DNA of 64,000 nt from Deltaproteobacteria bacterium (GTDB lineage Bacteria > Desulfobacterota > BSN033 > UBA1163). Made by a program: the position numbers and the translations under genes. This document shows positions 13,878 to 63,921 of this stretch, piece by piece; positions within the stretch are counted from its first letter, which is position 1, and each line of letters opens with the position of its first letter. A model generated the notes under the pieces. It worked only from the letters and a program-made list of their open reading frames with translations. It was not told where the DNA came from and made no database searches. The stretch covers positions 27,541-91,540 of the forward strand of contig VGRY01000006.1 of assembly GCA_016875195.1 (NCBI GenBank), read 5' to 3'.

Positions 13878-13903
13878 TATTCATCTGTGAGCGAATTGCA
13901 TCA

Positions 13904-14032: not shown

Positions 14033-14061
14033 TTGACAAACAATAGGTTTCATATTAAAAG
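14033..14061 (+). promoter_or_regulatory. sigma70-type promoter TTGACA-N17-TAAAAG for gdh
   Basis: TTGACA 14033-14038 and TAAAAG 14056-14061. The predicted TSS coincides with the start of P1 at 14069. Confidence 0.5.
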
Positions 14062-14068
14062 AACATCA

Positions 14069-14120
14069 CAATACAAAGAGGTATTGGAGATCGGGCATCA
14101 AGTTTTTGATGCTTTTTTTT
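14069..14120 (+). promoter_or_regulatory. ANTAR-type antiterminator/terminator module (gdh leader, copy 1)
   Basis: P1 CAATAC-AAAGAG-GTATTG at 14069-14086. P2 GAT-CGGGC-ATC at 14089-14099 has a 5-nt loop. Terminator GCATCAA-gttt-TTGATGC at 14095-14112 plus T8. Confidence 0.7.
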
Positions 14121-14122
14121 AA

Positions 14123-14178
14123 ACGATAAAGCGTCGTATGAATGACAAAGGCGTCAGAGTGAATGGACGCCTTTTTTT
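14123..14178 (+). promoter_or_regulatory. ANTAR-type antiterminator/terminator module (gdh leader, copy 2)
   Basis: P1 ACGA-taaagcg-TCGT at 14123-14137. P2 GAC-AAAGGC-GTC at 14144-14155. Terminator GGCGTC..GGACGCC at 14150-14171 plus T7. Confidence 0.7.
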
Positions 14179-14212
14179 ATCATTAGAATAACATAATAAA
14201 GGAGAACAAGTT

Positions 14213-15460: not shown

Positions 15461-15500
15461 TGAACGGGTGAATAAAAATTGTGGAAGAACGCATGCCAAT

Positions 15501-15535
15501 GGGGATACCCAGCAACCGGGTTATCCCCATTTTTT
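15501..15535 (+). terminator. Intrinsic terminator after gdh
   Basis: GGGGATA-cccagcaaccgggt-TATCCCC followed by ATTTTTT. Confidence 0.7.
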
Positions 15536-15617
15536 ATGATGTGACGACTTCCCAAATCTGATATTTTCGTATATGATAGGGCTATAAAATGAGTTCGAAA
15601 CTTATAAAGGAGGTGGC

Positions 15618-32737: not shown

Positions 32738-34078
32738 TTATATTGCCTCCATTGCCTTAGTGGCAAGTTCCTTGGCTTTTGAATAGTTCGCCTTGGCAGT
32801 GGCATCCCACTGGGTTTCCAGCTTTGCTCTGGTCTCGGTCTTCTCCTTGGGAAGAAAGGCCTTGTTAAATTCCTTGTCTTTGGCCTGAGCCTCGGTCACT
32901 GGCACTTTAGTTGCTAATGACCGGGCCTCGGCAACCATTCCAATCGCCTTTGTTACATCCTTCCCTTTCTTTTTCCCTTCCTCAATAGCCTTCTCCGCTT
33001 TATATATCGCGCCCCATGCCTCTTTCAATTCGTTTAACCTGAAGGTGATGATCTGATCGAAGAGGGGATTGACGATGCTATACCTCAAAGAGGAGAGTTC
33101 AGAGTTGAAATCAAGACCACCCAGTTTCATCTTAAAAGGATTCGGATATCCTCCAGGGGCTTTCACATAGAGTTCGGGGATGACAGGAAGCCTTCCGATC
33201 TCCGGTTTAAAAAGAAGCATCTGCCCTTCTTCACTGAGAAGATAATTGACAAACCTTTTCGCATTCTCAGGGTTCGGCCCTCCCTTTACAATACCTACGT
33301 TGGCTGGAACAATCGGAGTCAGAGAGGGATAGGCGAAATCAACCGGGAAACCGCTCGCTATGGCTGAGAGTCCGAAAAAGTCGATGACAATCCCAATTCC
33401 ATATTGTCCGTTGTTGACGCCTTCCGGCACACCGAAACTTCTCTCTGTTACGACAGCCATGTTACCGCCCATATTGAGCAGAAGTGCCCAGCCTTTATCC
33501 CAACCATAAGCCTGAAGGATGGATTCGACCGTGAGATGGGTGGTACCACTTCTCGAAGGCGCTGAAATCGAAAGGTGACCGAAGTAGCTGGGGTCAACCA
33601 GATCAGTCCATTCTTTCGGAGGTTTCACTTTGTGGGTCTGAAGATAGGGTTTATTCCACATCATCCCGTAACCGGAAAGCGCAAACCCGAAGAAGAACCC
33701 GTCAGGGTCATGGACTGGAAAAGCCCCGACCTTGGGGGGAATCCTTGATGCGATCTCTTTGGTAAGGTCATATTTGGCCAATAGCTTATCTGTCTTTAAA
33801 ACCTGGAAGGCATCCACGGCGCTGGCCCACATGAGGTCCGTATCTGGTTTTGCTGCTGTCTCACGGATATAGGTTACCCCCTGTGTGGTCGGTTTCTGCT
33901 GAATGACGACCTTAACCCCGGGATATTTCACTTCGAACGCTTTTTTATAAGCCTCAAAAAGCTCCTTTGGAAAGGAGGTAACAATGACCACCTCCTTGGT
34001 CTGGGCCCCCGCCATGGAAGAAATGAAAACGAATATAACCAGAGATACGACGATAAGTAGAGATTTCTTCATAGCCAT
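32738..34078 (-). CDS. ABC transporter periplasmic substrate-binding protein (family 1; iron(III)/polyamine/thiamine type) with Lys/Ala-rich C-terminal extension
   Basis: Signal peptide plus SBP fold motifs. First gene of an SBP-permease-ATPase operon. Confidence 0.8.
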   Translation of the reverse strand: MAMKKSLLIVVSLVIFVFISSMAGAQTKEVVIVTSFPKELFEAYKKAFEVKYPGVKVVIQQKPTTQGVTYIRETAAKPDTDLMWASAVDAFQVLKTDKLLAKYDLTKEIASRIPPKVGAFPVHDPDGFFFGFALSGYGMMWNKPYLQTHKVKPPKEWTDLVDPSYFGHLSISAPSRSGTTHLTVESILQAYGWDKGWALLLNMGGNMAVVTERSFGVPEGVNNGQYGIGIVIDFFGLSAIASGFPVDFAYPSLTPIVPANVGIVKGGPNPENAKRFVNYLLSEEGQMLLFKPEIGRLPVIPELYVKAPGGYPNPFKMKLGGLDFNSELSSLRYSIVNPLFDQIITFRLNELKEAWGAIYKAEKAIEEGKKKGKDVTKAIGMVAEARSLATKVPVTEAQAKDKEFNKAFLPKEKTETRAKLETQWDATAKANYSKAKELATKAMEAI

Positions 34079-43880: not shown

Positions 43881-43896
43881 TGGCACAAGGATTGCT
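43881..43896 (+). promoter_or_regulatory. sigma54 promoter TGGCAC-N5-TTGCT
   Basis: tggcacaaggattgct is a perfect consensus. 11 nt (ctctatactgc, no SD) lie between it and ATG 43908. Confidence 0.75.
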
Positions 43897-44625: not shown

Positions 44626-48879
<4,254 letters not shown>

Positions 48880-50201: not shown

Positions 50202-51929
50202 ATGGGATCAATTGGATTGAATAAAAAAAATTCAATTCCCGATGCGAAAGAGATCAATGCTTTGCTTGAGATCAGTAAAGCCATCGCTTCGGGTCTCTAT
50301 CTCGAGGATGTCCTTCGTCTGATCGTGACGGTGACCGCTAATGTGATGGACTCGAAGATCTGTTCTCTCTGGATCCTCGATGAAAGAGATCAGAGGTTGA
50401 AATTAAAAGCCACCCAGTCCATCAGCGAAGAATACCTCAGGGAGAGAAGCCTGGCTCTTGGAGAGGGAGTGGTCGGTCATGTCGCCCTTCATAATAAACC
50501 CATGGCCATTGCCAATGTCCTTCAAGACCCTCTCTATAAGGAGAAAGAGTTAGCAAAGAGGGAAGGATTGGTCTCCATGCTCAGCGTGCCAATGTGCATC
50601 AAGGAGAAGGTGATCGGGGTGATCAACTGTTATTCGTCCTCCCCTCGAACCTTTTCGAAGTCGGAAGAGGAGATGCTCTCAACCGTGGCCAATCAGGCTG
50701 CCATCTGCATCGAAAACTCCGGCCTCATGGAAACCCTCGATATCGATGAAATCCTGAGGCTGGTGCTGGAAGGGGTGATCAAGAACATCGGATTTGATCG
50801 GGCACGACTCTATCTGATCAACGAAAAGAGAAATGTCCTTGAATGCAAGATGGCTGTGGGAGTGGATGTGGAGAAGATCAAAGGGATTGAACTCCCTCTT
50901 ACCCTCGAAAGCAGTGTGGTATCGAGGTCTGTGATTGAAAAGAAACCCTATTTCATTCCCGATGCCAGGAATGACCAAAGGGTCAACCCTGTTTTAAAAG
51001 AGAAATTCAATCTTCACTCCCTCGTGGTCATTCCTCTCTTCACAAAAGAAAAAGTTCTCGGGGTGATTGCCGCAGACCATATCGAACCCGGAAGAAGGCT
51101 GACACAGGAAACGCTCGATTCGGTGATGACTTTTGCTCAACAGGCAGGATTGGCCATTCAAAATGCCTCCATGTATCAGGAGCTCAAGAATTTCAGCCAG
51201 CAGATGGAGGAGAAGATTGAAAAGACAACTGCGGACCTCAGAAAAACAGAGGCTCAGTTGATTCGGTCTGAAAAACTGGCAGCCCTGGGTCAACTGGCCG
51301 CAGGCATTGCCCATGAAATCCGAAATCCTCTGACCAGCATCAACATCCTCATTCATTCGATGAGGGAGAAATTGCCCTCTGAACATTCACAGCAGGAAGA
51401 CCTGAAAGTGATCGAAGAGGAAATCTATCGCATGGATGAGATCGTCAGCCAGTTTCTTCGATTCGCAAAACCCGCTTCTCCATTCCTTGAAAAAACAGAT
51501 CCCCTCTCTATTTTTGAGGAGATCCTTCAATTGCTCAGGCCTCAGATAGAAAGGCAACGCATCATGGTTGAAAAGGAGTTCCAAGCCCTTCCTATGATCC
51601 TGATCGACCGTGAGCAGATGAAACAGGCCATGCTCAATCTTCTGCTCAATGCCATCCAGGCCATGCCGAAAGGAGGTCATCTGATCCTTTCAGGTCGGAA
51701 TTCCGAAGATGGCCAATGGGTTTGTCTATCCGTCCAGGACTCCGGAATAGGAATCTCTTCAGAAGACATGGATAAACTGTTCGACCCCTTCTTCTCCACA
51801 AAAGAGGGGGGAATGGGCCTTGGCCTCTCCATCACCCATCGCATCATTGACCAGCATCATGGAAAGATTGAGGTGAATAGCATCCCTGAAAAGGGAACGC
51901 TTTTTACAGTTTGGTTACCTATTTCATGA
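50202..51929 (+). CDS. Sensor histidine kinase: GAF-GAF-HisKA-HATPase_c
   Basis: First GAF is 106/157 identical to the GAF of the ANTAR protein (hand alignment). H-box AHEIRNPLTSI. N/G boxes LLLNAIQAM and DSGIGI..GGMGLGL. Confidence 0.9.
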   Translation: MGSIGLNKKNSIPDAKEINALLEISKAIASGLYLEDVLRLIVTVTANVMDSKICSLWILDERDQRLKLKATQSISEEYLRERSLALGEGVVGHVALHNKPMAIANVLQDPLYKEKELAKREGLVSMLSVPMCIKEKVIGVINCYSSSPRTFSKSEEEMLSTVANQAAICIENSGLMETLDIDEILRLVLEGVIKNIGFDRARLYLINEKRNVLECKMAVGVDVEKIKGIELPLTLESSVVSRSVIEKKPYFIPDARNDQRVNPVLKEKFNLHSLVVIPLFTKEKVLGVIAADHIEPGRRLTQETLDSVMTFAQQAGLAIQNASMYQELKNFSQQMEEKIEKTTADLRKTEAQLIRSEKLAALGQLAAGIAHEIRNPLTSINILIHSMREKLPSEHSQQEDLKVIEEEIYRMDEIVSQFLRFAKPASPFLEKTDPLSIFEEILQLLRPQIERQRIMVEKEFQALPMILIDREQMKQAMLNLLLNAIQAMPKGGHLILSGRNSEDGQWVCLSVQDSGIGISSEDMDKLFDPFFSTKEGGMGLGLSITHRIIDQHHGKIEVNSIPEKGTLFTVWLPIS

Positions 51930-51974
51930 TGACCGATGAACCATCATCTGTTCATCGTATTGAAAGGGGCAAAC

Positions 51975-53414
51975 ATGCAGACGATCCTCATTGTTGACGA
52001 TGATAAATCGATCCGCTACTCTCTGAAAAGGATGCTGGAAGATCATTTTTCCATCCTCACTGCCCAGAATGGAGAAGAAGCCCTATCGCGCATGAAAGAA
52101 TCTTCCCCTGATCTGATCATCATGGATATCAAGATGCCTGGCCGGAACGGAATCGATGTGTTGAAGGAGATGAAGTTCCTTGACCCGAAGTCCCTCATCA
52201 TTCTGATGACCGCCTATGGCACTACAGAGACGGCGATCGAGGCGATGAAATTTGGGGCTTTCGATTACATCCTCAAACCTTTCCCGATTCCACAGATGAA
52301 AGAGTTGGTGCAAAAGGCGATCGCATTGCGGAAACTGATGAAGGAAGAAGTCTCCTATGCATCCGAACCGGATCAACAAAAAGAGGAAGAACAGATCATC
52401 GGTTCCGCTCCCAAGATGCAGGAGATCTATAAGGTGATCGGACAGGTGGCTCCCAGCGATGTCACTGTCCTCCTCAGAGGCGAGAGTGGAACGGGAAAGG
52501 AATTAGTGGCACGTGCAATCTATCACTACAGCCTCCGTTCGAGCTACCCGTTTCTTCCGGTCAATTGTGCTGCCATCCCGGATACCCTTCTCGAAAGTGA
52601 ACTCTTCGGCCATGAAAAAGGAGCTTTTACCGGTGCCATCTCCAGGCGCATCGGAAAACTGGAACAATGTCAGGGAGGGACCATTTTTCTGGATGAAATC
52701 GGTGACATGTCTCTCTCCACTCAGGCCAAACTCCTCAGAATCCTTCAGGAAAAGACTTTTGAAAGGCTTGGGGGAAGGGAAACGCTCAGGGTGGATATTC
52801 GATTTATCGTGGCAACGAATAAAGATCTTGAAGAGGCGATGGTCAGGGGGGAATTTCGTGAAGACCTCTATTACCGGCTCAATGTGGTCTCTATCAAGAT
52901 TCCTCCTTTAAGGGAAAGAAAAGAGGATATCCCGAACCTCACCTCTTACTTCTTAAAAAAATTCAATCGTGATTTAAAGCGGAAGGTCGCCGGGATCACT
53001 CCATCGGCAATGGGAAAAATCACCTCCTACGGATGGCCAGGAAATGTGAGACAATTGGAAAATGTTCTGAAAAGAGCCGTGCTCCTCTGCCAGGGAGAAT
53101 GGATTCTTGATGATCAACTCCTTCTTGATGTAGAAGAGAGACGAGAGGCTGCAGAGGTTCTGAAAGGAAAGACATTCGAGGGCCTACTCGATTCCCTCTT
53201 TATGGAACTCACGGAAACCTCCCCGGACCGGGAAGGTCTGGATATGGTTTCAGCCATTGAGAAAGGGTTGATCCTTCGTGCCCTTCAAAAGACGAACGGA
53301 AACCAGGTTCAGGCAGCTTCGCTTCTCGGAATCAATCGGGGCACGCTCCGGAGCAAAATGGAGCGGTATCACATTAGAAAAGAGGTGCTGGTTTCCGAAG
53401 AGGATAATGAATAA
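51975..53414 (+). CDS. NtrC-family sigma54-dependent response regulator (REC-AAA+-Fis HTH)
   Basis: MQTILIVDDD..DLIIMDIKMPG, GESGTGKE, GAFTGA, and C-terminal AASLLGINRGTLRSKM. ATG 51975 with SD aagggg is preferred over 51936. Confidence 0.9.
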   Translation: MQTILIVDDDKSIRYSLKRMLEDHFSILTAQNGEEALSRMKESSPDLIIMDIKMPGRNGIDVLKEMKFLDPKSLIILMTAYGTTETAIEAMKFGAFDYILKPFPIPQMKELVQKAIALRKLMKEEVSYASEPDQQKEEEQIIGSAPKMQEIYKVIGQVAPSDVTVLLRGESGTGKELVARAIYHYSLRSSYPFLPVNCAAIPDTLLESELFGHEKGAFTGAISRRIGKLEQCQGGTIFLDEIGDMSLSTQAKLLRILQEKTFERLGGRETLRVDIRFIVATNKDLEEAMVRGEFREDLYYRLNVVSIKIPPLRERKEDIPNLTSYFLKKFNRDLKRKVAGITPSAMGKITSYGWPGNVRQLENVLKRAVLLCQGEWILDDQLLLDVEERREAAEVLKGKTFEGLLDSLFMELTETSPDREGLDMVSAIEKGLILRALQKTNGNQVQAASLLGINRGTLRSKMERYHIRKEVLVSEEDNE

Positions 53415-53589: not shown

Positions 53590-53605
53590 TGGCATATTAT
53601 TTGCT
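53590..53605 (+). promoter_or_regulatory. sigma54 promoter TGGCAT-N5-TTGCT upstream of glnA
   Basis: tggcatattatttgct with canonical spacing. The predicted TSS at ~53616 is 4 nt before P1. Confidence 0.75.
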
Positions 53606-53799: not shown

Positions 53800-55122
53800 A
53801 TGGACAAAGCAACTGTATTGAAGATGGCGAAGGAGAATGATGTCAAATTTATCCGACTCTGGTTTACGGACATTCTGGGATTTCTGAAGGGGTTTTCGAT
53901 CACCATCCATGAACTCGAAGGGGCCCTTGAGGAAGGCATGGGGTTTGATGGTTCCTCGATCCAGGGATATGCTCGAATCGACGAAAGCGATATGATCGCT
54001 AAGCCTGACCCAAAGACCTTCCAGATCATCCCGTGGCGACCCAAAGAGAATGCAGTAGCCCGGATGTTTGCCGATGTCTATGAACCTGATGGAACCCCCT
54101 ACAAAGGCGACCCCAGATTCGTCTTAAAAAAGACTCTTAAGAAGGCGCATGACCTTGGATATACCTTATATGTCGGGCCTGAACTGGAATATTTCTACTT
54201 TAAAAGCAGTGATGGGGCGCCACAGATTCTTGATAAAGGAGGATATTTTGACCTCACCCCTCTGGATGTGGCAACCGAACTCCGGCGTGAAACCATTCTC
54301 ACACTTGAAGCCATGGGTATCAGGGTGGAATACAGCCATCACGAGGTAGCCCCGAGCCAGCATGAGATCGATCTCCGTTATGCCGAGGCTCTGAGCATGG
54401 CAGACAATGCCATGACCTATCGCCTCGTGGTGAAGGAGGTTGCATTGAGACACGGTGTCTACGCCACATTCATGCCCAAACCCATTTTTAAACAGAACGG
54501 AAGCGGGATGCACACCCATCAGTCCCTTTTCAAGGGTGACACGAATGTCTTCTTCGATCCGAAGGATGAATTCCATCTTTCAAAGATTGCCAAGTCTTAT
54601 ATGGCCGGAATTTTAAAACATTCAAAGGAAATCACCTCCATCACCTCCCAGTGGATCAACTCTTACAAAAGACTTGTCCCAGGATACGAAGCGCCGGTCT
54701 ATATCGCCTGGGCCCGGAGAAACCGTTCGGCACTGGTCCGGGTTCCCATGTATAAACCTGGAAAAGAGAAAGCCACACGGATGGAACTCCGCTCCCCCGA
54801 TCCGGCATGCAATCCCTATCTGGCCTTTGCTGTCATGTTGGCTGCAGGCCTGAAGGGAATCGAGAAGGGTTATGAACTTCCGTCTCCTGTTGAGGAGGAC
54901 ATTTTTGAGATGTCTGAAGAGGCACGGAAAAGACACGGAATCGAATCGCTTCCGGGAAGTCTATATGAAGCCATCCAGCTCACCGAACAGAGTGAACTGG
55001 TAAGAGAAACCCTTGGAGACCACATCTTCCATAAATTCATTGAAAACAAGAAGATCGAATGGGATCAGTACCGGACCCACATCTCCCAGTTCGAATTGGA
55101 GAAGTATCTGCCTATTCTTTAA
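53800..55122 (+). CDS. glnA: Glutamine synthetase type I, paralog 2 (complete, 440 aa)
   Basis: GMGFDGSSIQGY, GPELEYFYF, HHEVAPSQHEIDLRY, NGSGMHTHQSLF, RVPMYKPGKEKATRMELRSPD. SD aaggagga upstream. Confidence 0.95.
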   Translation: MDKATVLKMAKENDVKFIRLWFTDILGFLKGFSITIHELEGALEEGMGFDGSSIQGYARIDESDMIAKPDPKTFQIIPWRPKENAVARMFADVYEPDGTPYKGDPRFVLKKTLKKAHDLGYTLYVGPELEYFYFKSSDGAPQILDKGGYFDLTPLDVATELRRETILTLEAMGIRVEYSHHEVAPSQHEIDLRYAEALSMADNAMTYRLVVKEVALRHGVYATFMPKPIFKQNGSGMHTHQSLFKGDTNVFFDPKDEFHLSKIAKSYMAGILKHSKEITSITSQWINSYKRLVPGYEAPVYIAWARRNRSALVRVPMYKPGKEKATRMELRSPDPACNPYLAFAVMLAAGLKGIEKGYELPSPVEEDIFEMSEEARKRHGIESLPGSLYEAIQLTEQSELVRETLGDHIFHKFIENKKIEWDQYRTHISQFELEKYLPIL

Positions 55123-55130: not shown

Positions 55131-55338
55131 AACGGTTAGGGTAACGAGGCCTCTGCCTACCGGCCCCGGGCCCGACCGAGGGTGGGGCAGGCAGGCGCTT
55201 CGGTTAATTTTAAATTGACGTTTGTCGTTGTCGAAGCTCGTATCGATGCTCGACTGTCGAAACTGGAGGTTCGAATCCATTTTTGCCGGGTTTCGAGCAT
55301 CGAGCTTCCAGCTTCGATACCAGCGTCGTCACCGTTAA
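55131..55338. repeat. Two adjacent imperfect palindromes (E9)
   Basis: gcctctgcctacc..ggtggggcaggcaggc, then gtcgaagctcgtatcgatgctcga .. tcgagcatcgagcttccagcttcgatacc. Confidence 0.6.
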
Positions 55339-55429
55339 ACGATATTCTCTTGAACCTTAATTGATACGGATTTTGTCACCGTAACCCTTAGAGTACTTCC
55401 GAAAACGAATCAAGGTGAGGTGAACGAAA

Positions 55430-58400
55430 GTGAGCCAGAAGAGAGAAAAGTTAGCCTGGAGAAAGTATATTGAAGATTTTTTACAGCAAAGCCCGGACTT
55501 GAAGGCCATTTCCGACCCAGAGAAACTCGAATACTACCGGAATGACCTCAATGTGGACCTCCCGCCTTTGATCCGGGGCCTGATGCTCAAAAGCCTTCCC
55601 GACCTTATTCTCCAGCCTGCAACTGAAGAACACCTCCTCAATATCTTTGCATTTGCAAGCAAACATAAAATCCCTTTAACCGCCAGGGGCGCGGGAACAT
55701 GGGGTTACGGTGGAGCTGTCCCAACCCGCGGAGGAATTGTTATCGACCTTAGCTCGATGGATACGATTGAGGTTGATCCAGGAACCCTCCAAGTGACAGT
55801 TGGACCGGGAGCTCGTTTTGCCGATATCCACGCAGAACTTGAAAGACACGGCCTCACCTTACTTACCATGACATCCGGCAAGGGCGGAACCCTTGCAGGC
55901 TGGATGGCTACGGGTGGAATGGGATTCGGAACCTATTATCACGGACCAGTAAAGAATCAGATCATTTCCCTGCGGGTCATTACCCCTGATGGAAATGTTC
56001 TGAATCTAAAAGGGGATGATCCTGAGATCAACCATTTCCTCTCAACAGAAGGGCAGATGGGAATCATCGTAAAGGCCATATTGAAGTCTGGGCAAAAACC
56101 AGCCCATTGGTTTCCATTTGTCGTCCCTTTCGAAAAGGCATCTAACGCATATGCATTTGTCAGTAAACTTGACCGCCATCCATTTATCAAACCCCATGAC
56201 CTCATCGTCTATCATGCAGGATTGGCGCGCGTCCTCCAGTCAAAGTCAAATGGAAGATTGACTGTTGGAGATAAACATCTCGTTCTCATTGCCTTCGCTG
56301 ACCAGGAGCAGTCTCAATTGTTTAGACTCTACCTGGATGAGAGTGGAATTCAAATAGCAGATGAGGAATCAGCCTCTTTTCTCTGGGAGGAACGATTCCT
56401 TCCGATATCCATCAAGCACCTCGGCCCTTCTCTCTTAGCGACAGAGGTGATCCTGCCGCTTGATCAAGTGGGAGCCTATGAAGAAAAGATAAGTGAGTGG
56501 GGGAAGCGGTTGGGCTTAACTTTCTATTCCTCTTCCCATCTCATCAATCGAGATCAGGTCCTCTTTCTTGCCATGATCACCTCTGATCACAGGAAGGCCA
56601 TCTTCTACATCGACCTCATGCTCGTTCCGATGATGGTCAGGCTGGCCATTCAGTTTTACAGCGGAAAGCCCTACGGTCTGGGAATATGGAACACGCCTTT
56701 TCTCCGTGACCTCTTTTCAAAAGAAGAAGTGACAAAACTGGTTCAATATAAGAAGAAGGTAGACCCTCATGGAATCCTCAATCCGGGAAAGTTTTTTACT
56801 GTATCTGGAAAACTGGGTCCTCTTCAGAAGATGATCTTTCATTCGGATATCTTCAACCTCGAACTCACCGCGATGAACTGGCTTCTCTTCAAGCTCTTCT
56901 CCATCATTCCTGAGAAGACCCTTAGGCAGCAACTGCCAGCTTCACCCCTGGGGCTTGAAGGGGTTTCAAATGAGGTCAACTCCTGCGCCCAGTGCGGAAA
57001 TTGTGTCTCCCGATGTCCAGTTTATCGGGCAACAAGAGATGAAACCTTCTCAGCGAGAGGCAAACTTCTGACGATCAAGAGGGCAATGGAGACGAAGAAG
57101 ATCGAGCTGTCAAAGGTCTTACCTCTCTACTTCTGTCTCCACTGCGGCCGTTGTGATGAAGAGTGCCAGGTCAACATCAAACATCGCCCACTTTACAGCA
57201 ACCTCGAAGCCCATTTCTCCAGTACCATCGACTTCCCGATCCAGGAGGTGACCCGCTTCATCCAGGAAGTTGAAAATAGTCCGGAGTTCTACCGGTTCCT
57301 CGACGTGATCAGAACGGGGTTCGACCAGAAAGTTCGTGAACAGCGGCAGACGTTCCCCAGGTACCATGTGGCGATTGACGACGAACACTGTATCCATTGT
57401 GGGACCTGCGTCGATGCCTGCATCTACGGTGTTCGAAAACGTGACGAGAAAGATCCACGTTGCGTGGTGATTGCCGATGAAGCGCTCTGCCGGGGCTGCG
57501 GTTCCTGTCTTGAGCGTTGCCCACAGGTCGCCAAAGGAATCCCGGCAACCACTGTGGAACTCCACCCGGATTACCTGAGCATGCACGACCCGTACTGGAC
57601 GAGTGAAGCCATCACCCGTATCGACCTCGAAGCCACCACCGGAAAGATCCCTGTTTCCGGGACTGGACAGGGAGATCCCCATCGCGGTTACGGCAATGAC
57701 GGGATTCGCTTCGGCCACTTTCATATTGTCGGCCCTGCTCAGAACCTCCTCTATGAAAGTTCTGAGGATGCCATCTCGATCCTGATTGGACAAAGGCCAA
57801 AATACCTGACCTTTGACGGGGAAACTCTCAAAACCCCGCCTCCACGGTTGATCCATTTAAAGACACCCCTGATCCTCGATATCATGCCCATGGATGGAGG
57901 AGAAGATCTGTTGGAGCCCATGTTCGAGGCAGTCCAGCAAACAGGAACCCGACTGACGCTCCGCCTCGAAGAGTTGGAACGTTATGAGTCGCGGATTGCC
58001 GATCGGATGAAGAATCTAATATTGAGATTAACTTCTGAAGACTTGAAAAGCCTTCTCAATGGAAAGGCATGGCCGGAGGTGTTGAAAAACAATCCTCCTG
58101 ATCTGGTCGAAATCGAGCTGGAGGGAGAAGCCTTAAAAAAGGCAGAGAAAATTTCAGCGCTCCTCCCGAATTCGGTTCTCTGTGCTGTCATTAAAATTGA
58201 AAAGGGATTTGTTGATGCAGAGCTTCGGCCCACCTCTGCCCTGAAGAAAAAACTGGAGTCCCTCTTCGAATCGCCTTTTGATGCTATCTGCCTCACTTCT
58301 GATTATGATTCAGAAAAAGGGTACTACCCCACTACCGATGCTGTTCCTGCTGTTCACCGTTTTCTCGTAGAAAAGAAAATTCGCCATCGCTTTTCTATCC

Positions 58401-61400
58401 TGGCAGCTGGTGGAATCCGTTCTGCAGCCGATTCTCAGAAAACGATCCAGCGCGGTGCAAATGGGATCAAGATCGATTGGCCGGTCCTTCTGGCTGCCAA
58501 TCCTCAAGCACGACAGAAATTTTCACAGGGAGAGCGCCTCCATCTTCTCCATGATTCCTCCTCCCTAACCAAACGGATCACCCACCTTATTCGGGTCTGG
58601 AATGTCCAGATCATTGAAGTCTTGGGCGCTTCAGGGTTTAAGGATATTAAAAAGACGGTTGGAGAGGAAAACCGTCTCCTCATCTTCGATGACCTCGAAG
58701 AAAGGGTCTATGACATTTTCAAAAACAAAGATTGCATTGAAAGAAACCGTGTGACTAATCTGGCACGTCTCCAGAGGGAAGGCAAAGGTGATGGCTGGAA
58801 ATACAGTCAATTGAAGAATTTGATCAAACCTACTCAATCCCCTCACCGGTTCTATAGCTGCAGCCTGAAGTCTTCCTGTTACCAGATTTTCGACCGCGAT
58901 TATGTCTGGCCAGCCTCTCTGATTGCTTCGGTGGGCCATATGGCAAGTGGAAATCCAGAAACGCTTCAACTTGGCCACACAGAGGAGCGCGGGAATTTAG
59001 GGGATGGTTTTGATTTCATACAGGTCCTCTTTCAACGCAACCCCGATACCCTTTCGGAAGATCTCATTGACCATGTCTCCACCAGTCTTCAGATCAATCC
59101 TGAATTGAGGCTAAAAGCCCCCTTTATTGGAGCAGGAATGTCAGTGGGTTCAATCGGACCTGGAACCTGGCGCGCCCGGGTCCTGGCCACTCGTGCCCTT
59201 GGGACACAGATGGACACGGGTGAAGGAGGATATCCCACTTTCTATATCCTCGATGAAAAGTGGAACTCTATTGATTTGACCGACGCACAGGTTCTCCTGC
59301 TTGGCCAGATCATGGAGCCCCGGAAATTGATTCCCATGGCTGAGTTGATCAGAAAGGTCCAGGAAGAATTGGCAGAATCTCCTGAAATTGAAAAAATTCT
59401 ACAGGTTCTCCAGAAATATCCGGCCTCCAGGACTGTTCAGTTTGTCCCAATCGTCTTGCACGAAGACGAACCTTATGTCTCCACCCAGCTCAAGACAGGT
59501 CTCTTTGGGGTAACCAAGGAGACGATTCGGAAGGCACGTCGTGTGGTAATCGCGTACAGCCAGGGAGCAAAACAGGGTGTGGGCGGTCATCTATTAGGCC
59601 GAAAAGTGTTTGGTCTGGTCTCAAGGCTCCGCGGCGTGGCAGAAGGGGTCAGCCTCATCTCCCCCTTCCCCTTCCATAATTGCTACTCCATTGAAGATGT
59701 GAAGGCCTTCATCGATGCAGTACGCATGATCAACCCGCAGGCCTCGATCTGCATCAAGGTCTCCCCATCGCCTGATATCGAGTTTATCGTCTCCGGGCTC
59801 GCCCGGATTGCCAAGGACAACAGGATGGCCATTGAGGTCTGGCTCGATGGGCCTCGCGGAGGGACAGGTGCAGCCCCAGACATCATCAAGGGTCAGATGG
59901 GAATGCACATCGAATATGCCATCCCCATCTGTCATGAGAAATTGATTAGTGATGGACTGAGAGATAACGTCGTTTTCCTGGGAAGCGGTGGATTTCGCAC
60001 CTGGGGAGATATGGTGAAAGGCATAGCCATGGGGTTGGATGGCATTGTCCTCGGTACCTCTGATCTGGTTGCTATTGGCTGTGTTCGTGACCGCAATTGC
60101 GAGTCAGGATGTCGAAGTGGAATCTCAACGATTGAACCCAAAATGCAATTGCTAAGAGATGTCGGGATCAACACCCAGCAGTTGATCAATTTCCGTGCCA
60201 TCTTACAGGCTCAGGTTGCAAGGGCTGTCGCGGGCCTTGGATTGGAAGACATCCGTGAACTTCGGGGCCGATATGATCTGATTCAATGGCCTGTGCTCGA
60301 AGAAAGGGTCCAGGAGCGTCGTCGCCGTCGTTCTGAGATCTCAATCAAGGAACCGTCACGAATCTATCCCTCTGATTCATTCCCTCATTATACATTGAGC
60401 GAATCAGCACCTCCTCCTTCGGATTGTGGTGTGGCAGCGATCGTCTCCAACCATTTCATCCCGAGCCATGTGATGGACCTGATGCTCGACCGGATGGCAA
60501 ACCGTGGAATGGACGGTGTGGGCATATGGAAAGGAGGATGTTACCCGGCTCATATCGACCACTATGCCTTCCATGTCCTGATTAAAGGGACTCTCCAGCC
60601 TCAGGTTGAAGAAAAATTCTCGTTAGCCCATCCGAACCTGAATTCTGAAGAGGTCCGGCAAATGGCCCGGAGAAAAATTCTCTCTAACCGACGTCTCCTC
60701 ATGCGAGAGATTCTGGAGAAATATTTCTATGGTCTTCAACTCGATTCATTCGATGGGGATCTGGAGAAATGGAGAATTCCGTATAAACGCGATGAAAACG
60801 GAAGGGAGAGAGATTTTCTATATTATGGAGAAAGAGATCCCGGAGATGTTTTCCGGTTCTTTGTCCGCGTCCTGCCGCCCGAACTCTTTCGCTTCATTGA
60901 AGATGAGTTACTCAATGATCCCATTTGGCCCCCACGACAGGTCCGTTACCAACATCTGACCGTTCAAAATTATAGGGAGAATAAGGAATTTCTGCGGGAA
61001 GCTGAGGACGAATATATCTATCGACTCTCACGTAAGATCACTCGTGAGAATTATGTAGAAGCTCACCAGAAGAAGGCATCTGTACTCTCCTGTGGTAAAA
61101 ACTCCGGCTGCTGGAAGACGGATGGTCAACATATCCCATGGGAAACTCCGGATGCTCCGGTCAATGTGATTCATAGACGGCTGGCCACGGGATCTGTGGT
61201 GGATCAGATGAACTCCCATCCTTTTGCCGAACTGCACACAGCATTGACGCATAATGGAGAGACGACGAATTATCGCACCATGTTGAATCGGGTTTCCCAA
61301 ACGAACTTAACACCGCTGGCTCAAACCGACACCGCAGTAGCTTCCCTGAAGCTCCATCTGCTCAGTCAGTATCTCCACTATCCCTTTGATGCCCTGGTAG

Positions 61401-63025
61401 AATCCTTCTCTCCCACCACAGGTTGGAGCTTGACCCAATTCTCCTCTGAGGTCAGAGAGCGTTTTGAGCGCGTGCAGGAGGTTGAGCTGGAAAGCGCTCC
61501 AGATGGCCCCTACCAATACCTCTGTGGCCGGATTGACCCTTATCAACGGGTGATTGAACGGCTCGATGTCATCGATCCTTCCCTGCTCAGGCCTAATGTG
61601 GCCATGCTTTATGATGACGGAGAAAACTTCGCGTCCATCATCTGTTCCGAGAAACAGGGCTGTGATGCAGGAATGCAGGAACTTCACCGGTTGGGATTGA
61701 CCAAAAGTACGGTTGCTCCAGTCACTTTAACCGTTAACCCCGGGATGGTAAGTAGAGTATTTTACGATGAGAACGGGAAGATTTCAGGCTATGAGGTCCT
61801 CGATAAATTTGGAAAGAAACTGGACATCCCTCATGGAGCTTTCCCCTCTTCAGAACCTATCTTCTCTATAGGAGATTCTGAAAAAATAGATTCAGGATCC
61901 AATCCTTCAGCTTTCATCCGTGAACGACTGCCTCAATGGGGGTTTGGTGAGTTTAAAAAGGAACTGGATAAAATTTCAGAAAATTTCCCTTCCCAGCAGG
62001 TCATTGAGGAACTTGCCCGGATCCACGATCATCTGCCAGGCTGGGATACCGGAAATAAGGATAGGGGAGCTTTAATTCATATCGTGCGGGACCAGATCGA
62101 TTCATGTCTCGACCGTGGGAAAGAAAAAGACGGAATGTCCCGCGTCACCATATCCAATGCTAAAACATTGAATCCGCCCAAAGATCCTGCTCAGGTGCTG
62201 GTAGTGGACGCCAAAGGATTTCAGCCCGAAGGCATTGAACCGTTCCGGGTTCTCAATCCTTTCCTCAACCATGCCCACCGAATGGGATGGCGTAAGTTTA
62301 TTGTCTATCGAGTAGAGGGGCAGCGGGGTATCGGTATGGGCATAGGTTCCGGTGATACCTCAGATACGACGATAGATGTCTTTGGAAGCCCTGGCGAGTA
62401 TTGCGGGGCCTTTAATATGGGGGCTTTGGTCCGTGTCCATGGACACGCACAGAATTTTACCGGCATGGTCATGCATTCCGGCACACTCGAAATCCACGGA
62501 GATGTGGGCAAGGTGATAGGATACTCTGCAAAAGGCGGCACGTTTAACATCTTAGGAAATGTCGTTGATCGAGGCTGGGTCTGTGCGGTCAGTGACCCGC
62601 GAGGTCCAGGATTGCAGGTCAATGTCGTAGGGACGGCCTATGAACATCTCTGTCAGGCGTTGATGGGGGGATCGGTCATCATGCTGGGACTCTTTCGGAG
62701 CAATGACGGAATTCTTCATAGGATGGATTCCCCATATCATGGAGCCAAGATCCTTGCCGGTGCATCTGCCGGGGAGATCATCTTCTACGATCCCGCGAAA
62801 AGATTGGAAGAGGCTCAATACGGAAGTGGTAGAGTAAATCCCATTGACCAGAAAAAATGGGAGGAAATTATGAACCGCCTGATGAACCTTGAAAAGATTT
62901 TTGGTCTCGGGATTCTCAGAGAGAACAACCATCTCACAGTCTGTATTGACAAGCAGCGACAGGATATGACTCCTGATGATTTTATATGGATTGCCCCAAA
63001 GGGGGAACTGGCAGGCTATCATTAA
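55430..63025 (+). CDS. Giant fusion protein: FAD-linked oxidase (GlcD-like) + GlcF-like and ferredoxin-type Fe-S + divergent TIM barrel + GltS FMN domain + class II (Ntn) glutamine amidotransferase + GXGXG domain
   Basis: GTG start with SD aaggtgagg. Residues ~60-470: FAD_binding_4/oxidase-C (ARGAGTWGYGG..VDPHGILNPGKFF). ~518-590: CAQCGNCVSRCP..CLHCGRCDEEC. ~650-700: CIHCGTCVDAC..CRGCGSCLERCP. ~1180-1640: GAGMSVGSIGPG..DTGEGGYP..SQGAKQGVGGHLLGRKV..SPFPFHNCYSIEDV..DGPRGGTGAAP..GC..C..GC. From Cys1666: CGVAAIV..HNGETTNYR. ~2255-2480: GSPGEYCGAFN..GHAQNFTGMVMHSGTLEIHGDVG. Confidence 0.85.
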   Translation: MSQKREKLAWRKYIEDFLQQSPDLKAISDPEKLEYYRNDLNVDLPPLIRGLMLKSLPDLILQPATEEHLLNIFAFASKHKIPLTARGAGTWGYGGAVPTRGGIVIDLSSMDTIEVDPGTLQVTVGPGARFADIHAELERHGLTLLTMTSGKGGTLAGWMATGGMGFGTYYHGPVKNQIISLRVITPDGNVLNLKGDDPEINHFLSTEGQMGIIVKAILKSGQKPAHWFPFVVPFEKASNAYAFVSKLDRHPFIKPHDLIVYHAGLARVLQSKSNGRLTVGDKHLVLIAFADQEQSQLFRLYLDESGIQIADEESASFLWEERFLPISIKHLGPSLLATEVILPLDQVGAYEEKISEWGKRLGLTFYSSSHLINRDQVLFLAMITSDHRKAIFYIDLMLVPMMVRLAIQFYSGKPYGLGIWNTPFLRDLFSKEEVTKLVQYKKKVDPHGILNPGKFFTVSGKLGPLQKMIFHSDIFNLELTAMNWLLFKLFSIIPEKTLRQQLPASPLGLEGVSNEVNSCAQCGNCVSRCPVYRATRDETFSARGKLLTIKRAMETKKIELSKVLPLYFCLHCGRCDEECQVNIKHRPLYSNLEAHFSSTIDFPIQEVTRFIQEVENSPEFYRFLDVIRTGFDQKVREQRQTFPRYHVAIDDEHCIHCGTCVDACIYGVRKRDEKDPRCVVIADEALCRGCGSCLERCPQVAKGIPATTVELHPDYLSMHDPYWTSEAITRIDLEATTGKIPVSGTGQGDPHRGYGNDGIRFGHFHIVGPAQNLLYESSEDAISILIGQRPKYLTFDGETLKTPPPRLIHLKTPLILDIMPMDGGEDLLEPMFEAVQQTGTRLTLRLEELERYESRIADRMKNLILRLTSEDLKSLLNGKAWPEVLKNNPPDLVEIELEGEALKKAEKISALLPNSVLCAVIKIEKGFVDAELRPTSALKKKLESLFESPFDAICLTSDYDSEKGYYPTTDAVPAVHRFLVEKKIRHRFSILAAGGIRSAADSQKTIQRGANGIKIDWPVLLAANPQARQKFSQGERLHLLHDSSSLTKRITHLIRVWNVQIIEVLGASGFKDIKKTVGEENRLLIFDDLEERVYDIFKNKDCIERNRVTNLARLQREGKGDGWKYSQLKNLIKPTQSPHRFYSCSLKSSCYQIFDRDYVWPASLIASVGHMASGNPETLQLGHTEERGNLGDGFDFIQVLFQRNPDTLSEDLIDHVSTSLQINPELRLKAPFIGAGMSVGSIGPGTWRARVLATRALGTQMDTGEGGYPTFYILDEKWNSIDLTDAQVLLLGQIMEPRKLIPMAELIRKVQEELAESPEIEKILQVLQKYPASRTVQFVPIVLHEDEPYVSTQLKTGLFGVTKETIRKARRVVIAYSQGAKQGVGGHLLGRKVFGLVSRLRGVAEGVSLISPFPFHNCYSIEDVKAFIDAVRMINPQASICIKVSPSPDIEFIVSGLARIAKDNRMAIEVWLDGPRGGTGAAPDIIKGQMGMHIEYAIPICHEKLISDGLRDNVVFLGSGGFRTWGDMVKGIAMGLDGIVLGTSDLVAIGCVRDRNCESGCRSGISTIEPKMQLLRDVGINTQQLINFRAILQAQVARAVAGLGLEDIRELRGRYDLIQWPVLEERVQERRRRRSEISIKEPSRIYPSDSFPHYTLSESAPPPSDCGVAAIVSNHFIPSHVMDLMLDRMANRGMDGVGIWKGGCYPAHIDHYAFHVLIKGTLQPQVEEKFSLAHPNLNSEEVRQMARRKILSNRRLLMREILEKYFYGLQLDSFDGDLEKWRIPYKRDENGRERDFLYYGERDPGDVFRFFVRVLPPELFRFIEDELLNDPIWPPRQVRYQHLTVQNYRENKEFLREAEDEYIYRLSRKITRENYVEAHQKKASVLSCGKNSGCWKTDGQHIPWETPDAPVNVIHRRLATGSVVDQMNSHPFAELHTALTHNGETTNYRTMLNRVSQTNLTPLAQTDTAVASLKLHLLSQYLHYPFDALVESFSPTTGWSLTQFSSEVRERFERVQEVELESAPDGPYQYLCGRIDPYQRVIERLDVIDPSLLRPNVAMLYDDGENFASIICSEKQGCDAGMQELHRLGLTKSTVAPVTLTVNPGMVSRVFYDENGKISGYEVLDKFGKKLDIPHGAFPSSEPIFSIGDSEKIDSGSNPSAFIRERLPQWGFGEFKKELDKISENFPSQQVIEELARIHDHLPGWDTGNKDRGALIHIVRDQIDSCLDRGKEKDGMSRVTISNAKTLNPPKDPAQVLVVDAKGFQPEGIEPFRVLNPFLNHAHRMGWRKFIVYRVEGQRGIGMGIGSGDTSDTTIDVFGSPGEYCGAFNMGALVRVHGHAQNFTGMVMHSGTLEIHGDVGKVIGYSAKGGTFNILGNVVDRGWVCAVSDPRGPGLQVNVVGTAYEHLCQALMGGSVIMLGLFRSNDGILHRMDSPYHGAKILAGASAGEIIFYDPAKRLEEAQYGSGRVNPIDQKKWEEIMNRLMNLEKIFGLGILRENNHLTVCIDKQRQDMTPDDFIWIAPKGELAGYH

Positions 63026-63408: not shown

Positions 63409-63696
63409 ATGGCAGTCAGGATCGTTATCGACCGAAAAGTGAAGAAGGGGAAAGAAGTGGAGTTTGCAAAAATGCTCAGAGAGTTGAGAACAAAGGTGGT
63501 TCCTGCCAAAGGGTACATCTCTGGCGAGACGCTCCGGGCATTGAATGACCACTCCAACTATATCGTCATTACCACGTGGCAGAATGTGGATGATTGGAAA
63601 GAGTGGGAGAAAAATCCGGATCGGAAAAAGGTTCAGGCAAAGATGGAAAAACTGATGGCCAGACCGACCAAGGCCAAGATTTACGTCTATGCCTGA
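63409..63696 (+). CDS. ABM-fold (antibiotic biosynthesis monooxygenase-like) protein
   Basis: MAVRIVIDRKVKKGKEVEF..YIVITTWQNVDDWKEWEKN. SD agaggagg upstream. Confidence 0.7.
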   Translation: MAVRIVIDRKVKKGKEVEFAKMLRELRTKVVPAKGYISGETLRALNDHSNYIVITTWQNVDDWKEWEKNPDRKKVQAKMEKLMARPTKAKIYVYA

Positions 63697-63827: not shown

Positions 63828-63880
63828 AATAAAAAATTTTTAGAAAGTGTTATGGCCAAACGGGTAAACGCTAAATCAAA

Positions 63881-63921
63881 GACCCTCGATCCCTCTCAAC
63901 AGGGATCGGGGGTCTTTTTTT
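63881..63921 (+). terminator. Strong intrinsic terminator about 50 nt downstream of the predicted TSS
   Basis: GACCCTCGATCCC-tctcaaca-GGGATCGGGGGTC, 13 bp with one G-U pair, plus T7. Confidence 0.75.

Follow-up and report, generated by a model that had tools for sequence, protein, structure and literature searches.

A glutamate synthase candidate fused from four subunits, with a GlcD-like flavoprotein as the proposed functional analogue of GltD

Glutamate synthase (GltS, GOGAT) is the main route by which nitrogen enters biomass when ammonium is scarce. The established enzymes take their electrons from NADPH, NADH or ferredoxin, and an F420-dependent class has been predicted, while the electron source of the archaeal-type GltS has, to our knowledge, never been shown. 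What reduces such an enzyme is the question raised by a 2531-residue reading frame in the window, that is, the whole 64,000-nucleotide stretch of a deltaproteobacterial contig analysed here. From sequence comparison we think, with a probability of roughly 0.7, that this gene encodes the GOGAT of the organism as a fusion of four subunits, whose N-terminal flavoprotein would do the work of GltD. The locus thus offers a defined and expressible candidate for what reduces archaeal-type GltS.

The reading frame and its split counterparts

The ORF (55430..63025, plus strand, as are all domains given below) is uninterrupted, starts with GTG downstream of the Shine-Dalgarno sequence AAGGTGAGGTG and encodes a fused glutamate synthase precursor. 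It is a real gene and not an assembly artefact. The identical protein is present on 5 contigs. Full-length single-ORF homologues, drawn from NCBI, JGI, ENA and Logan assemblies, fall into two clades and make up about 190 to more than 200 protein clusters, from metagenome-assembled genomes labelled as around ten bacterial phyla or candidate phyla; more than 110 clusters are 2500-2570 aa long and 63-77% identical, and another 79 measure approximately 2850-2990 aa. The homologue is also a single ORF in 51 GTDB genome loci. In an alignment of 27 full-length ORFs the module junctions are free of gaps and their sequences are conserved. In principle, an overlooked stop codon could make separate genes look fused, and a four-gene split version does exist in related bacteria, so ordinary adjacent genes might have been joined by a frameshift or an assembly error. 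However, the recurrence across contigs and about 190 independent clusters of two clades, together with the conserved junctions, effectively refutes this explanation, to which we give almost no weight.

A first-pass annotation of the sequence had read here an FAD-linked oxidase, a GlcF-like cysteine pair, a ferredoxin, a TIM barrel, a GltS FMN domain, a class II amidotransferase and a GXGXG domain. Pfam finds every one of them in that order. Both halves of its central claim are supported: the protein is a single-ORF glutamate synthase with permuted GltB modules (barrel, FMN, GATase, GXGXG), and these are fused to a flavoprotein of GlcD/LDHD fold with a GlcF-type di-cluster domain. The architecture turned out to be common, both as a fusion and as a four-gene operon, but our search of the published literature found no characterised example of the fused four-module form, as the annotation had supposed.

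Among non-fused proteins, the closest relatives of the N-terminal part, sought by exhaustive phmmer with residues 1-720 as query, measure 610-625 aa and keep a PYGxGIWN motif discussed below. They are encoded in an operon that runs FAD-FeS protein, ferredoxin-barrel (Fd-barrel) protein, FMN synthase, GATase-GXGXG protein, which is the domain order of the window protein. The Fd-barrel gene lies directly downstream of the FAD-FeS gene in 77 of 80 metagenome loci, the other three stopping at a contig edge, and the FMN gene and then the GATase-GXGXG gene follow in the same order in every metagenome locus with enough DNA. Methanocellales and Smithellaceae both have the split operon, which often adjoins glnA; in Methanocellales and another archaeal-type locus the series is glnA, FAD-FeS, Fd+barrel, FMN and GATase+GXGXG. 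Consequently, the window protein is an end-to-end fusion of a four-subunit glutamate synthase, and the archaeal-like order noticed at first pass is that of an operon found in Archaea. A further protein, P0295, has the same modules fused in a different circular order, which argues for an obligate functional unit.

Hosts of the GltS-linked N-terminal module include syntrophs, Calditrichota, KSB1, Methanocellales and Methanomassiliicoccales. Many anaerobes, then, encode a GltS with an obligate flavoprotein partner of a fold wholly unlike that of GltD, physically fused to the synthase in some lineages. A large unannotated "GlcD-like" clade, at present wrongly named glycolate oxidase or D-lactate dehydrogenase, is thereby identified as glutamate synthase subunits.

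The synthase and glutaminase domains

The GltS FMN/synthase domain occupies residues 1216-1625 (59075..60304), according to Pfam (Glu_synthase, residues 1216-1605, E 2e-75) and alignment to 1ea0 and 1llw. Its 2-oxoglutarate-site residues E1265, K1381 and R1401 are invariant and align with E903, K972 and R992 of Synechocystis GltS. Also invariant are C1551, C1557 and C1561, which align with Cys1102, Cys1108 and Cys1113 of Azospirillum GltS (1ea0); the 3Fe-4S-type cysteines seen at first pass are therefore matched by the cluster cysteines of a known enzyme. At the position of Fd-GltS Q978 the window protein has a His, and the archaeal split genes have the same.

Residues 720-1215 (57587..59074) were assigned by hhalign, weak Pfam similarity and Foldseek to a degenerate paralogue of this FMN barrel. 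Compared with residues 1216-1650, hhalign gives a probability of 96.7% (E 3.7e-10); the Glu_synthase/Glu_syn_central-like Pfam match around 937-1027 is weak, and Foldseek alignments of the region to GltS alpha extend over 750-900 columns. The annotation had called this part a divergent TIM-barrel, and a barrel it is, but hhalign corrects its identity to an internal paralogue of the FMN domain and the counterpart of the GltS central domain. Its invariant motifs are PVSGxGQGDxH...HFHIVGPAQN and GGIRxAxDxQKTxQRGA. The Fe-S loop is deleted, and split-operon gene 2 has a 4-Cys loop there; that gene seems to be an intermediate stage in how the GltS central domain arose. The phosphate-binding-like GGIR motif is kept, and the barrel could even act as an additional flavin site with a further role.

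A class II (Ntn) glutamine amidotransferase follows at residues 1666-2115 (60425..61774). It is recognised by Pfam (GATase_6, residues 1898-1970, 31 bits against a cutoff of 27) and by a profile search of the PDB, in which GlmS (E 3e-08) and PurF (2e-04) match with Cys1 aligned. C1666, R1917, N1942-G1943 and D1967 correspond to GlmS Cys1, Arg73, Asn98-Gly99 and Asp123, and all are invariant. Ahead of the domain, the alignment places a variable linker (residues 1626-1665; 60305..60424), a predicted propeptide-like junction and autoprocessing site, which ends in a conserved D/N directly before Cys1666. The split GATase genes likewise have 7-28 residues ahead of their Cys. By analogy with the propeptides of PurF and GltB we predict cleavage ahead of C1666; the precursor would probably be cut between D1665 and C1666, freeing the Ntn nucleophile and giving associated chains of 1665 and 866 residues. 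As the glutaminase Cys is internal, the functional enzyme probably consists of two chains and activity would depend on this predicted cleavage. The single polypeptide described earlier thus holds for the ORF and probably not for the mature enzyme. A connector that is poorly conserved in the conservation profile (residues 2116-2259; 61775..62206) leads to the FwdC-like GXGXG beta-helix, the C-terminal domain of GltS (residues 2260-2531; 62207..63022), identified by Pfam (residues 2311-2461, 46 bits against a cutoff of 32.5) and by PDB matches to FwdC.

A GltS-like enzyme could also catalyse another reaction, for example one similar to that of N-methylglutamate synthase, which reuses GltS-like domain sets, or another amination or deamination. 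The glutaminase is indeed very divergent, with no match in a single-sequence search of the PDB, and the His in place of Q978 points the same way. However, all glutaminase and 2-oxoglutarate-site residues are conserved, and the 3Fe-4S triad implies redox chemistry. The neighbours are glnA, PII, GlnD and NtrC-like genes in bacteria and GS and NrpR in archaea, and Pfam on the scanned ORFs found neither gmaS nor mgd, the methylamine-metabolism genes that accompany N-methylglutamate synthase (MgsABC), among the neighbouring genes examined. We consider a different reaction very improbable.

The FAD module and its electron donor

The N-terminal module (residues 27-460; 55508..56809) is a VAO/PCMH-type FAD domain with a cap and a D-lactate-dehydrogenase-like fold. 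This assignment comes from Pfam (FAD_binding_4, residues 57-193, E 3e-32; FAD-oxidase_C, residues 303-454, 28 bits), phmmer against the PDB (6v42, 7qh2_C), AlphaFold2 (pLDDT about 90) and Foldseek, with TMt 0.74-0.81 to mLDHD (8jde), LctD (7qh2_C) and D2HGDH (6lpn) and about 0.7 to AGPS. The FAD-binding motifs, W319, R322, K329, Y415, W420 and N421 are invariant across deep divergence, which points to a conserved ligand site. We propose this module as the electron-entry flavin.

Two iron-sulfur domains come after it. The first is a GlcF-type Fer4_8 (residues 515-583; 56972..57178; Pfam), consistent with 2 x [4Fe-4S], whose two CxxCxxCxxxC motifs (Cys519/522/525/529 and Cys569/572/575/579) keep all eight Cys in 42 sequences; the NCBIfam GlcF model matches partially here. 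In Fe-S subunits of the GlcF/HdrD/YdiJ type, CCG domains come after Fer4_8; the window protein has none and the ferredoxin domain comes next, whereas CCG is present in PYG-family members that are farther removed, such as P0238. The second, a ferredoxin-type 2 x [4Fe-4S] domain (residues 646-700; 57365..57529; Pfam), has Cys654/657/660/664 and Cys687/690/693/697, again all invariant. The 16 Cys of the four motifs, like the invariant glutaminase, 2-oxoglutarate-site and 3Fe-4S residues named above, are unchanged across two clades about 28-45% identical to each other. AlphaFold2 confidence is low for the Fe-S domains and for the conserved 720-777 segment.

The annotation had suggested that the module oxidises a D-2-hydroxyacid (D-lactate, glycolate or D-2-hydroxyglutarate) and passes on the electrons, D-2-hydroxyglutarate also providing the 2-oxoglutarate. 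Its PCMH FAD-binding and cap domains are those of the FAD-dependent D-2-hydroxyacid dehydrogenases and glycolate oxidase (LDHD, LctD, D2HGDH, GlcDEF, YdiJ), D-lactate dehydrogenases, LctD and D2HGDH provide the best PDB matches, the NCBIfam glcD model aligns over its whole length, and the flavoprotein is followed, as in YdiJ and GlcF, by a CxxCxxCxxxCP pair of GlcF type. Moreover, the lactate/pyruvate couple, at about -190 mV, would be thermodynamically sufficient. In the pocket, the invariant R322 aligns with the LctD Arg and is the counterpart of the carboxylate-binding mLDHD Arg347, K329 is conserved, and H370 (LctD H377) is the sole retained member of the His-His-Glu metal triad (mLDHD His398, His405, Glu442).

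Against this, glcD scores only 86 bits where its cutoff is 568. Of the five residues essential to D-lactate dehydrogenase, three differ here: His405 (the second metal His of mLDHD), Glu442 (its metal Glu) and His443 (its catalytic His) have given way to V377, P414 and Y415. The latter two belong to the clade-wide invariant motif P414-Y415-G-x-G-I-W420-N421, which stands where the family has E-H-G-I-G, and they are kept in every member checked. The roles of mLDHD His398, His405 and Glu442 and of the catalytic His443 have been described, and alanine mutants of His405, Glu442 and His443 each abolish activity (PMC10589216). As far as the active site defines the metal-dependent D-2-hydroxyacid dehydrogenase family, the FAD module is outside it, and its reductant is probably not handled by the canonical metal-dependent chemistry. 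The window protein also differs from the GlcDEF/YdiJ group in having no CCG domains, and from hydroxyacid dehydrogenases in that its electrons would go to an enzyme domain and not to a quinone, ETF or cytochrome. The neighbours of the archaeal locus are NrpR and GS, and those of the Smithellaceae loci GS, CarA and a sigma-54 activator; no conserved hydroxyacid transporter or metabolism gene was found in either. Hydrogenotrophic methanogens are among the hosts, and the Methanocellales and Methanomassiliicoccales, which are hosts too, are not known to have an obvious hydroxyacid supply on the scale of the nitrogen assimilation flux. With the catalytic residues replaced and only nitrogen-assimilation neighbours, a hydroxyacid donor is not supported and we regard it as unlikely; as the site still has its carboxylate-binding Arg and one metal His, the idea is no more than weakened.

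MurB is the one NADPH-using member of the VAO-type superfamily, and the FAD domain might oxidise NAD(P)H in a similar way; it would then stand in for GltD on the same substrate without being homologous to it. The spread over methanogens, syntrophs and Calditrichota and the purely nitrogen-related neighbours favour such a universal donor, and the loss of the hydroxyacid catalytic set leaves the site free for another ligand. A flavin heading an Fe-S chain is, moreover, the classical converter from two-electron to one-electron transfer (PMC8097209). However, apart from the shared FAD_binding_4 (NCBIfam MurB E 1.4e-4), no resemblance to the MurB substrate domain can be detected, the module has no Rossmann or other nucleotide-binding motif, and the conserved Arg and Lys bind carboxylates in its relatives. 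NAD(P)H as the donor thus appears doubtful.

Ferredoxin could also deliver the electrons to the Fe-S domains, with the flavin serving, for example, in bifurcation or confurcation, as a second exit, as a redox sensor or as a GlcE-like structural remnant. The FMN subunit of classical archaeal-type GltS has its own ferredoxin domain, as has split-operon gene 3 (FMN), there are more clusters than a simple wire needs, and the LDHD-family catalytic residues are lost as in non-catalytic paralogues. Yet the invariance of the FAD-binding motifs and pocket residues speaks for a conserved ligand site, and the module is kept in every fused and split member, the permuted fusion included. We find ferredoxin entry quite improbable.

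More speculatively, the protein may belong to a fourth glutamate synthase class, widespread among anaerobic Bacteria and Archaea. Its electrons would come not from NAD(P)H, ferredoxin or F420 but from a small organic metabolite oxidised directly at a VAO-type flavin whose Tyr-based active site would be new, or else the flavin would bifurcate; we put this forward as possible, not as probable. If true, nitrogen assimilation would be directly coupled to a carbon-metabolite redox pair, and models of its energetics in energy-limited anaerobes would change.

Proposed working, related enzymes and gene neighbourhood

In the fused GOGAT that we favour, the FAD of the N-terminal VAO/PCMH-type domain would be reduced by a hydride donor and glutamine would be hydrolysed at Cys1666. 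The ammonia would then pass through a tunnel of the central-like and FMN barrels to 2-oxoglutarate bound at K1381 and R1401, and the 2-iminoglutarate so produced would be reduced to glutamate. The electron path may parallel the wiring of NADPH-GltS, from FAD through 2 x [4Fe-4S] and [3Fe-4S] to FMN (PMC8097209). It would also follow the FAD-to-FMN route of dihydropyrimidine dehydrogenase (DPD) and PreAT; in DPD, a hydride donor feeds FAD, four [4Fe-4S] clusters and an FMN TIM barrel that reduces the substrate (PMC8097209). The FAD module of DPD is, however, unrelated, being GltD-like, and DPD lacks a glutaminase and a 3Fe-4S cluster.

All four GltB modules of GltB/GltD (1ea0, 6s6x) and Fd-GltS (1ofd) are present in the window protein, with the same 2-oxoglutarate-site and cluster residues, the link to glutamine synthetase and, presumably, the same entry from flavin through a [4Fe-4S] chain and [3Fe-4S] to FMN. 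Unlike in these bacterial enzymes, the glutaminase comes after the synthase and not at the N-terminus, four [4Fe-4S] clusters are expected and not two, one reading frame holds everything, and the central-type barrel copies the FMN barrel more fully. The input flavoprotein has a VAO/PCMH fold, whereas GltD is adrenodoxin-reductase-like.

The archaeal-type split GltS and FGltS(I/II) (PMC3448663) share the ferredoxin-type clusters ahead of the FMN-domain protein, GATase and GXGXG apart from the synthase, a gene order equal to the domain order here, and a dedicated, exchangeable electron-input subunit encoded alongside. The F420-dependent FGltS, itself predicted from context, provides a precedent for swappable input partners (PMC3448663). 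In contrast to these systems, the input here is a GlcD/LDHD-fold FAD protein plus Fer4_8 and not an FrhB/FpoF-type F420H2 dehydrogenase, there is an extra Fd+barrel subunit, and all subunits are fused in the window.

The gene neighbourhood, established by ORF scan, is one of nitrogen assimilation. Directly upstream lies glnA, a type I glutamine synthetase (53800..55122), a conserved adjacency that loci L001, L002 and L004 share with the archaeal split operons. The fused gene of the Calditrichota-type clade is not a neighbour of glnA. Farther upstream are amtB (44626-45933), PII glnK/B (46029-46367), the uridylyltransferase gene glnD (46357-48879), an NtrB-like GAF histidine kinase (50202-51929) and an NtrC-type sigma-54 response regulator (51936-53414), all, like glnA, on the plus strand. 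The fused gene would be co-expressed with glnA under this adjacent NtrBC-like/PII system. A motif match to a sigma-54-like -24/-12 element, TGGCATATTATTTGCT (53590..53605, plus strand), 195 nt upstream of glnA, is a lead only, since the window as a whole shows no enrichment of such matches. A 95-aa ABM-domain gene (63409..63696, plus strand) is conserved downstream in L001 and L004, and beyond it lies a strong terminator-like hairpin (63878-63917).

The ORF scan also confirmed that the window holds no GltD-like gene, all ORFs of at least 400 aa having been scanned or being antisense overlaps. The same window carries a GDH (14213-15460) and a separate GltS-FMN-like protein (12141-13877), so that the fused enzyme need not be the sole route to glutamate.

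The fused protein and its split counterpart

The uninterrupted ORF at 55430-63025 (+) encodes 2531 residues and starts with a GTG codon 8 nt 3' of AAGGTGAGGTG. Using Pfam and NCBIfam for domain placement, we found FAD_binding_4 (residues 57-193, Pfam E 3e-32), FAD-oxidase_C (303-454, 28 bits), a GlcF-type Fer4_8 di-cluster domain (515-583), a ferredoxin-type di-cluster domain (646-700), a region (about 937-1027) that resembles Glu_synthase, Glu_syn_central and FMN_dh only weakly, the GltS FMN domain (1216-1605, E 2e-75), GATase_6 (1898-1970) and GXGXG (2311-2461). The domain list of the first-pass annotation matches this order exactly.

The fusion is real, since single long ORFs were recovered from GTDB genome contigs and 27 full-length sequences cover the whole query in a nearly gap-free alignment. 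An identical protein occurs on five contigs, and more than 110 clusters of 2500-2570 aa, 63-77% identical over their full length, come from Syntrophaceae and Thermodesulfobacteriota MAGs. A second clade (79 clusters, about 2850-2990 aa, 28-45% identical to the window protein) derives from MAGs labelled Calditrichota, KSB1, Krumholzibacteria, Zhuqueibacterota and Gemmatimonadetes, and GTDB loci bring in further MAGs labelled Vulcanimicrobiota and Brocadiia. P0200 (746 aa, 53% identical), considered as a free-standing N-terminal module, was ruled out, being a fragment located at one end of a 2.6-kb contig.

An exhaustive phmmer search of 1.84 billion representatives, with residues 1-720 as query, placed next after the fused proteins a family of 610-625 aa, 32-35% identical over residues 27-625, which keeps the PYG motif (P414-Y415-G-x-G-I-W-N in the window protein). 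These proteins are encoded by the first gene of a four-gene operon of fixed order: FAD_binding_4/Fer4_8 (613-623 aa), ferredoxin plus GltS-like barrel (465-475 aa), GltS FMN domain (487-509 aa) and GATase plus GXGXG (843-858 aa). Scanning metagenomes with an alignment of the 610-625-aa proteins gave 342 relatives. Among the best 80 of these, the ferredoxin-barrel gene lies immediately downstream in 77 loci, the sequence of the other three stopping at a contig end, and wherever the sequence extends far enough, the FMN gene and then the GATase-GXGXG gene follow. Most of the metagenome loci belong to Smithellaceae; others are Methanocellales-like, with glnA upstream. glnA is also directly upstream of the split operon in a Methanocellales genome, and a second archaeal-type locus has GS genes on both sides and an NrpR-type regulator upstream. 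One member, from Methanomassiliicoccales, carries the annotation 'GlcD'.

As its domain order equals the gene order of the split operon, the window protein is a conserved four-subunit enzyme whose subunits are fused end to end. A third deep clade has a fusion in the same order (P0268, 3016 aa). Moreover, the single-gene protein P0295 (L059:7001-16459; 3152 aa) shows another circular order, namely GATase, GXGXG, FAD, ferredoxin, barrel and FMN, which is hard to explain unless the modules act together. The predicted N-terminus of P0295 is signal-peptide-like.

Synthase, glutaminase and barrel modules

When the FMN domain is aligned with the Azospirillum and Synechocystis enzymes, the lysine of QGAK (K1381), R1401, the glutamate of GEGG (E1265) and the [3Fe-4S] cysteines C1551, C1557 and C1561 fall in register, and all six residues are invariant across both fused clades. 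The glutaminase has diverged so far that single-sequence searching gave no PDB match, the C-terminal 871 residues matching only FwdC-like GXGXG structures. A PDB search with a family profile of the glutaminase retrieved GlmS (E 3e-08) and PurF (E 2e-04); the profile alignment places C1666 on Cys1, R1917 on Arg73, N1942-G1943 on the oxyanion Asn-Gly and D1967 on Asp123.

Region 720-1215 is paralogous to the FMN barrel of the same protein. It was aligned by hhalign with the last third of that barrel at 96.7% probability (E 3.7e-10), with the Fe-S loop deleted. In addition, Foldseek alignments of an AlphaFold2 model of residues 701-1660 to GltS alpha subunits span 750-900 columns, more than the FMN domain could account for by itself, and we infer that the modelled region covers the central and FMN domains. 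From the FMN, glutaminase, barrel and GXGXG matches it follows that the protein has the full set of four GltB modules, arranged as central-like, FMN, glutaminase, GXGXG.

The ferredoxin-barrel subunit of the split operon (L056:9826-11253, L054:9869-11266) carries a four-Cys loop, ECRYCKRCHDGLSCP, where the FMN domain has its 3Fe-4S loop; this loop is lost from the fused window protein. The split subunit looks like a halfway form linking a full synthase barrel to the cofactor-less central domain of classical GltB.

N-terminal module, electron donor and proposed mechanism

The AlphaFold2 model of residues 1-720 has high confidence over 1-460 (pLDDT about 90). When superposed, it gives a TMt of about 0.8 for mouse LDHD, LctD and D2HGDH and of about 0.7 for AGPS. 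Mouse LDHD binds Mn2+ and substrate through Arg347, His398, His405, Glu442 and His443, and replacing any one of them by alanine inactivates the enzyme (PMC10589216). According to the HMMER alignment to LctD, the Arg and the first His are retained in the window protein as R322 and H370, while the second His is V377 and the E-H of EHGIG is P414-Y415. The active site is different from those of LDHD, LctD and D2HGDH, and by it the protein falls outside the D-2-hydroxyacid dehydrogenase family. Every fused member and the split relatives share P-Y-G-x-G-I-W-N. The glycine-rich FAD-binding motifs are conserved too, and none of the 16 cysteines in the four CxxCxxCxxxC motifs varies. The window protein has no CCG domain, unlike GlcF and YdiJ. 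PDB 6v42, which the FAD domain matches best in sequence, likewise lacks the EHG motif, and a literature search found no publication on it. The gene context of P0353, a CCG-containing relative of the PYG family, did not point to a substrate.

The neighbourhood of the giant gene is related to nitrogen. On its strand, the gene is preceded by amtB, a PII gene, glnD, a GAF histidine kinase, an NtrC-type sigma-54 activator and glnA, and the adjacency of glnA recurs in the closest genomes. The Smithellaceae split operon has GS, carA and a sigma-54 activator as flanking genes. The window contains no GltD-like gene, the conserved neighbours include no gene of hydroxyacid metabolism, and no donor-related neighbours were found around P0295 or around a Calditrichota-type gene on a 4.7-Mb contig.

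These data confirm the observation of the first-pass annotation and support its interpretation in part, while arguing against the D-lactate, glycolate or D-2-hydroxyglutarate that it proposed as electron donor. That proposal was based on fold similarity, and the retained Arg, Lys and His make a carboxylate-bearing ligand possible. However, three of the five essential residues are lost, the enzyme occurs in hydrogenotrophic and methyl-reducing methanogens, and every gene neighbourhood relates to nitrogen alone. NAD(P)H or another universal reductant would be physiologically attractive, although no sequence feature supports it. The identity of the electron donor can be tested directly.

Beyond the parts, their conservation and their genomic coupling, which our data document, the course of the reaction would follow the established GltS mechanism (PMC8097209): a two-electron donor would reduce the N-terminal FAD, glutamine would be hydrolysed at Cys1666, ammonia would be channelled between both barrels to 2-oxoglutarate, and the imine would be reduced as the last step. 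Such a path would make the N-terminal module a non-homologous functional analogue of GltD. By analogy, the enzyme would share with NADPH-GltS and dihydropyrimidine dehydrogenase the logic of a flavin, an Fe-S chain and then an FMN barrel. To our knowledge, catalysis by class II amidotransferases always relies on a Cys1 whose alpha-amino group is free and, as the catalytic Cys is internal here, we predict autoprocessing at the conserved (D/N)|C junction before Cys1666. Split GATase genes too encode 7-28 residues ahead of the Cys, so that propeptide removal appears to be normal in the family.

Apart from an already known input partner and a Cys1 that is demonstrably free, all sequence-level features of a GOGAT were found. 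The sole precedent for a swap of the input subunit in archaeal-type GltS is a genomic prediction, the F420-dependent FGltS (PMC3448663). Our literature search found no description of a VAO-type partner, of the fused protein or of the four-subunit architecture; a Methanocella transcriptome paper calls the glt genes 'NADPH-dependent' by annotation only. Database names are generic ('FAD-binding protein', 'glutamate synthase-related protein', 'glycolate oxidase subunit GlcD'). The fused enzyme is common in uncultured anaerobes, yet apparently uncharacterised.

Regulatory signals and other genes of the window

A sigma-54-like element lies 195 nt upstream of glnA and is the sole noteworthy site; the window holds 26 consensus matches against 24 expected (no enrichment), none of them in the glnA-gltS spacer. 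Two matches to TGGCAC-N5-TTGCW are perfect (window 43881-43896 and 32900-32915 (+)), and one of them sits at the start of a class I GATase ORF upstream of amtB. The spacer contains an imperfect 49-nt inverted repeat (55219-55341, 71% complementary, 25-nt loop), which was rejected as a conserved element, the spacers of two relatives' loci, L001 and L004, showing no conservation of it. Terminator and promoter scans of the window stayed at chance level, and Rfam and tRNA scans gave no matches. Directly downstream of the giant gene, a 95-aa ABM-domain protein is encoded at 63409-63696 (+), a position conserved in L001 and L004, and a strong terminator-like hairpin follows 3' of it (63878-63917).

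A NuoF/HydB-like flavoprotein with Complex1_51K, NADH_4Fe-4S, 2Fe-2S thioredoxin-like and ferredoxin domains (5330-7725 (-)) adjoins a 181-aa ORF, about 48 kb from the GltS gene, to which no link was found. A second nitrogen cluster spans 12141-17354 (+). It begins with a stand-alone protein of 578 aa that resembles a GltS FMN domain, has a Cys-rich N-terminus and is 53% identical to the product of a gene (L054:6220-7809) immediately 5' of the FAD-FeS gene of an archaeal locus; the cluster continues with glutamate dehydrogenase (14213-15460) and glutamine-dependent NAD synthetase (15618-17354). At 9316-11964 (+), an 882-aa protein combines a KaiC/RecA-like N-terminus with a PPDK_N (PEP-utilising) domain. 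Along its entire length it shares 42% identity with the product of the gene directly downstream of a split operon (L081:16849-19440), and homologues occupy that place in nine Smithellaceae loci; this protein is a recurrent neighbour of nitrogen-assimilation genes.
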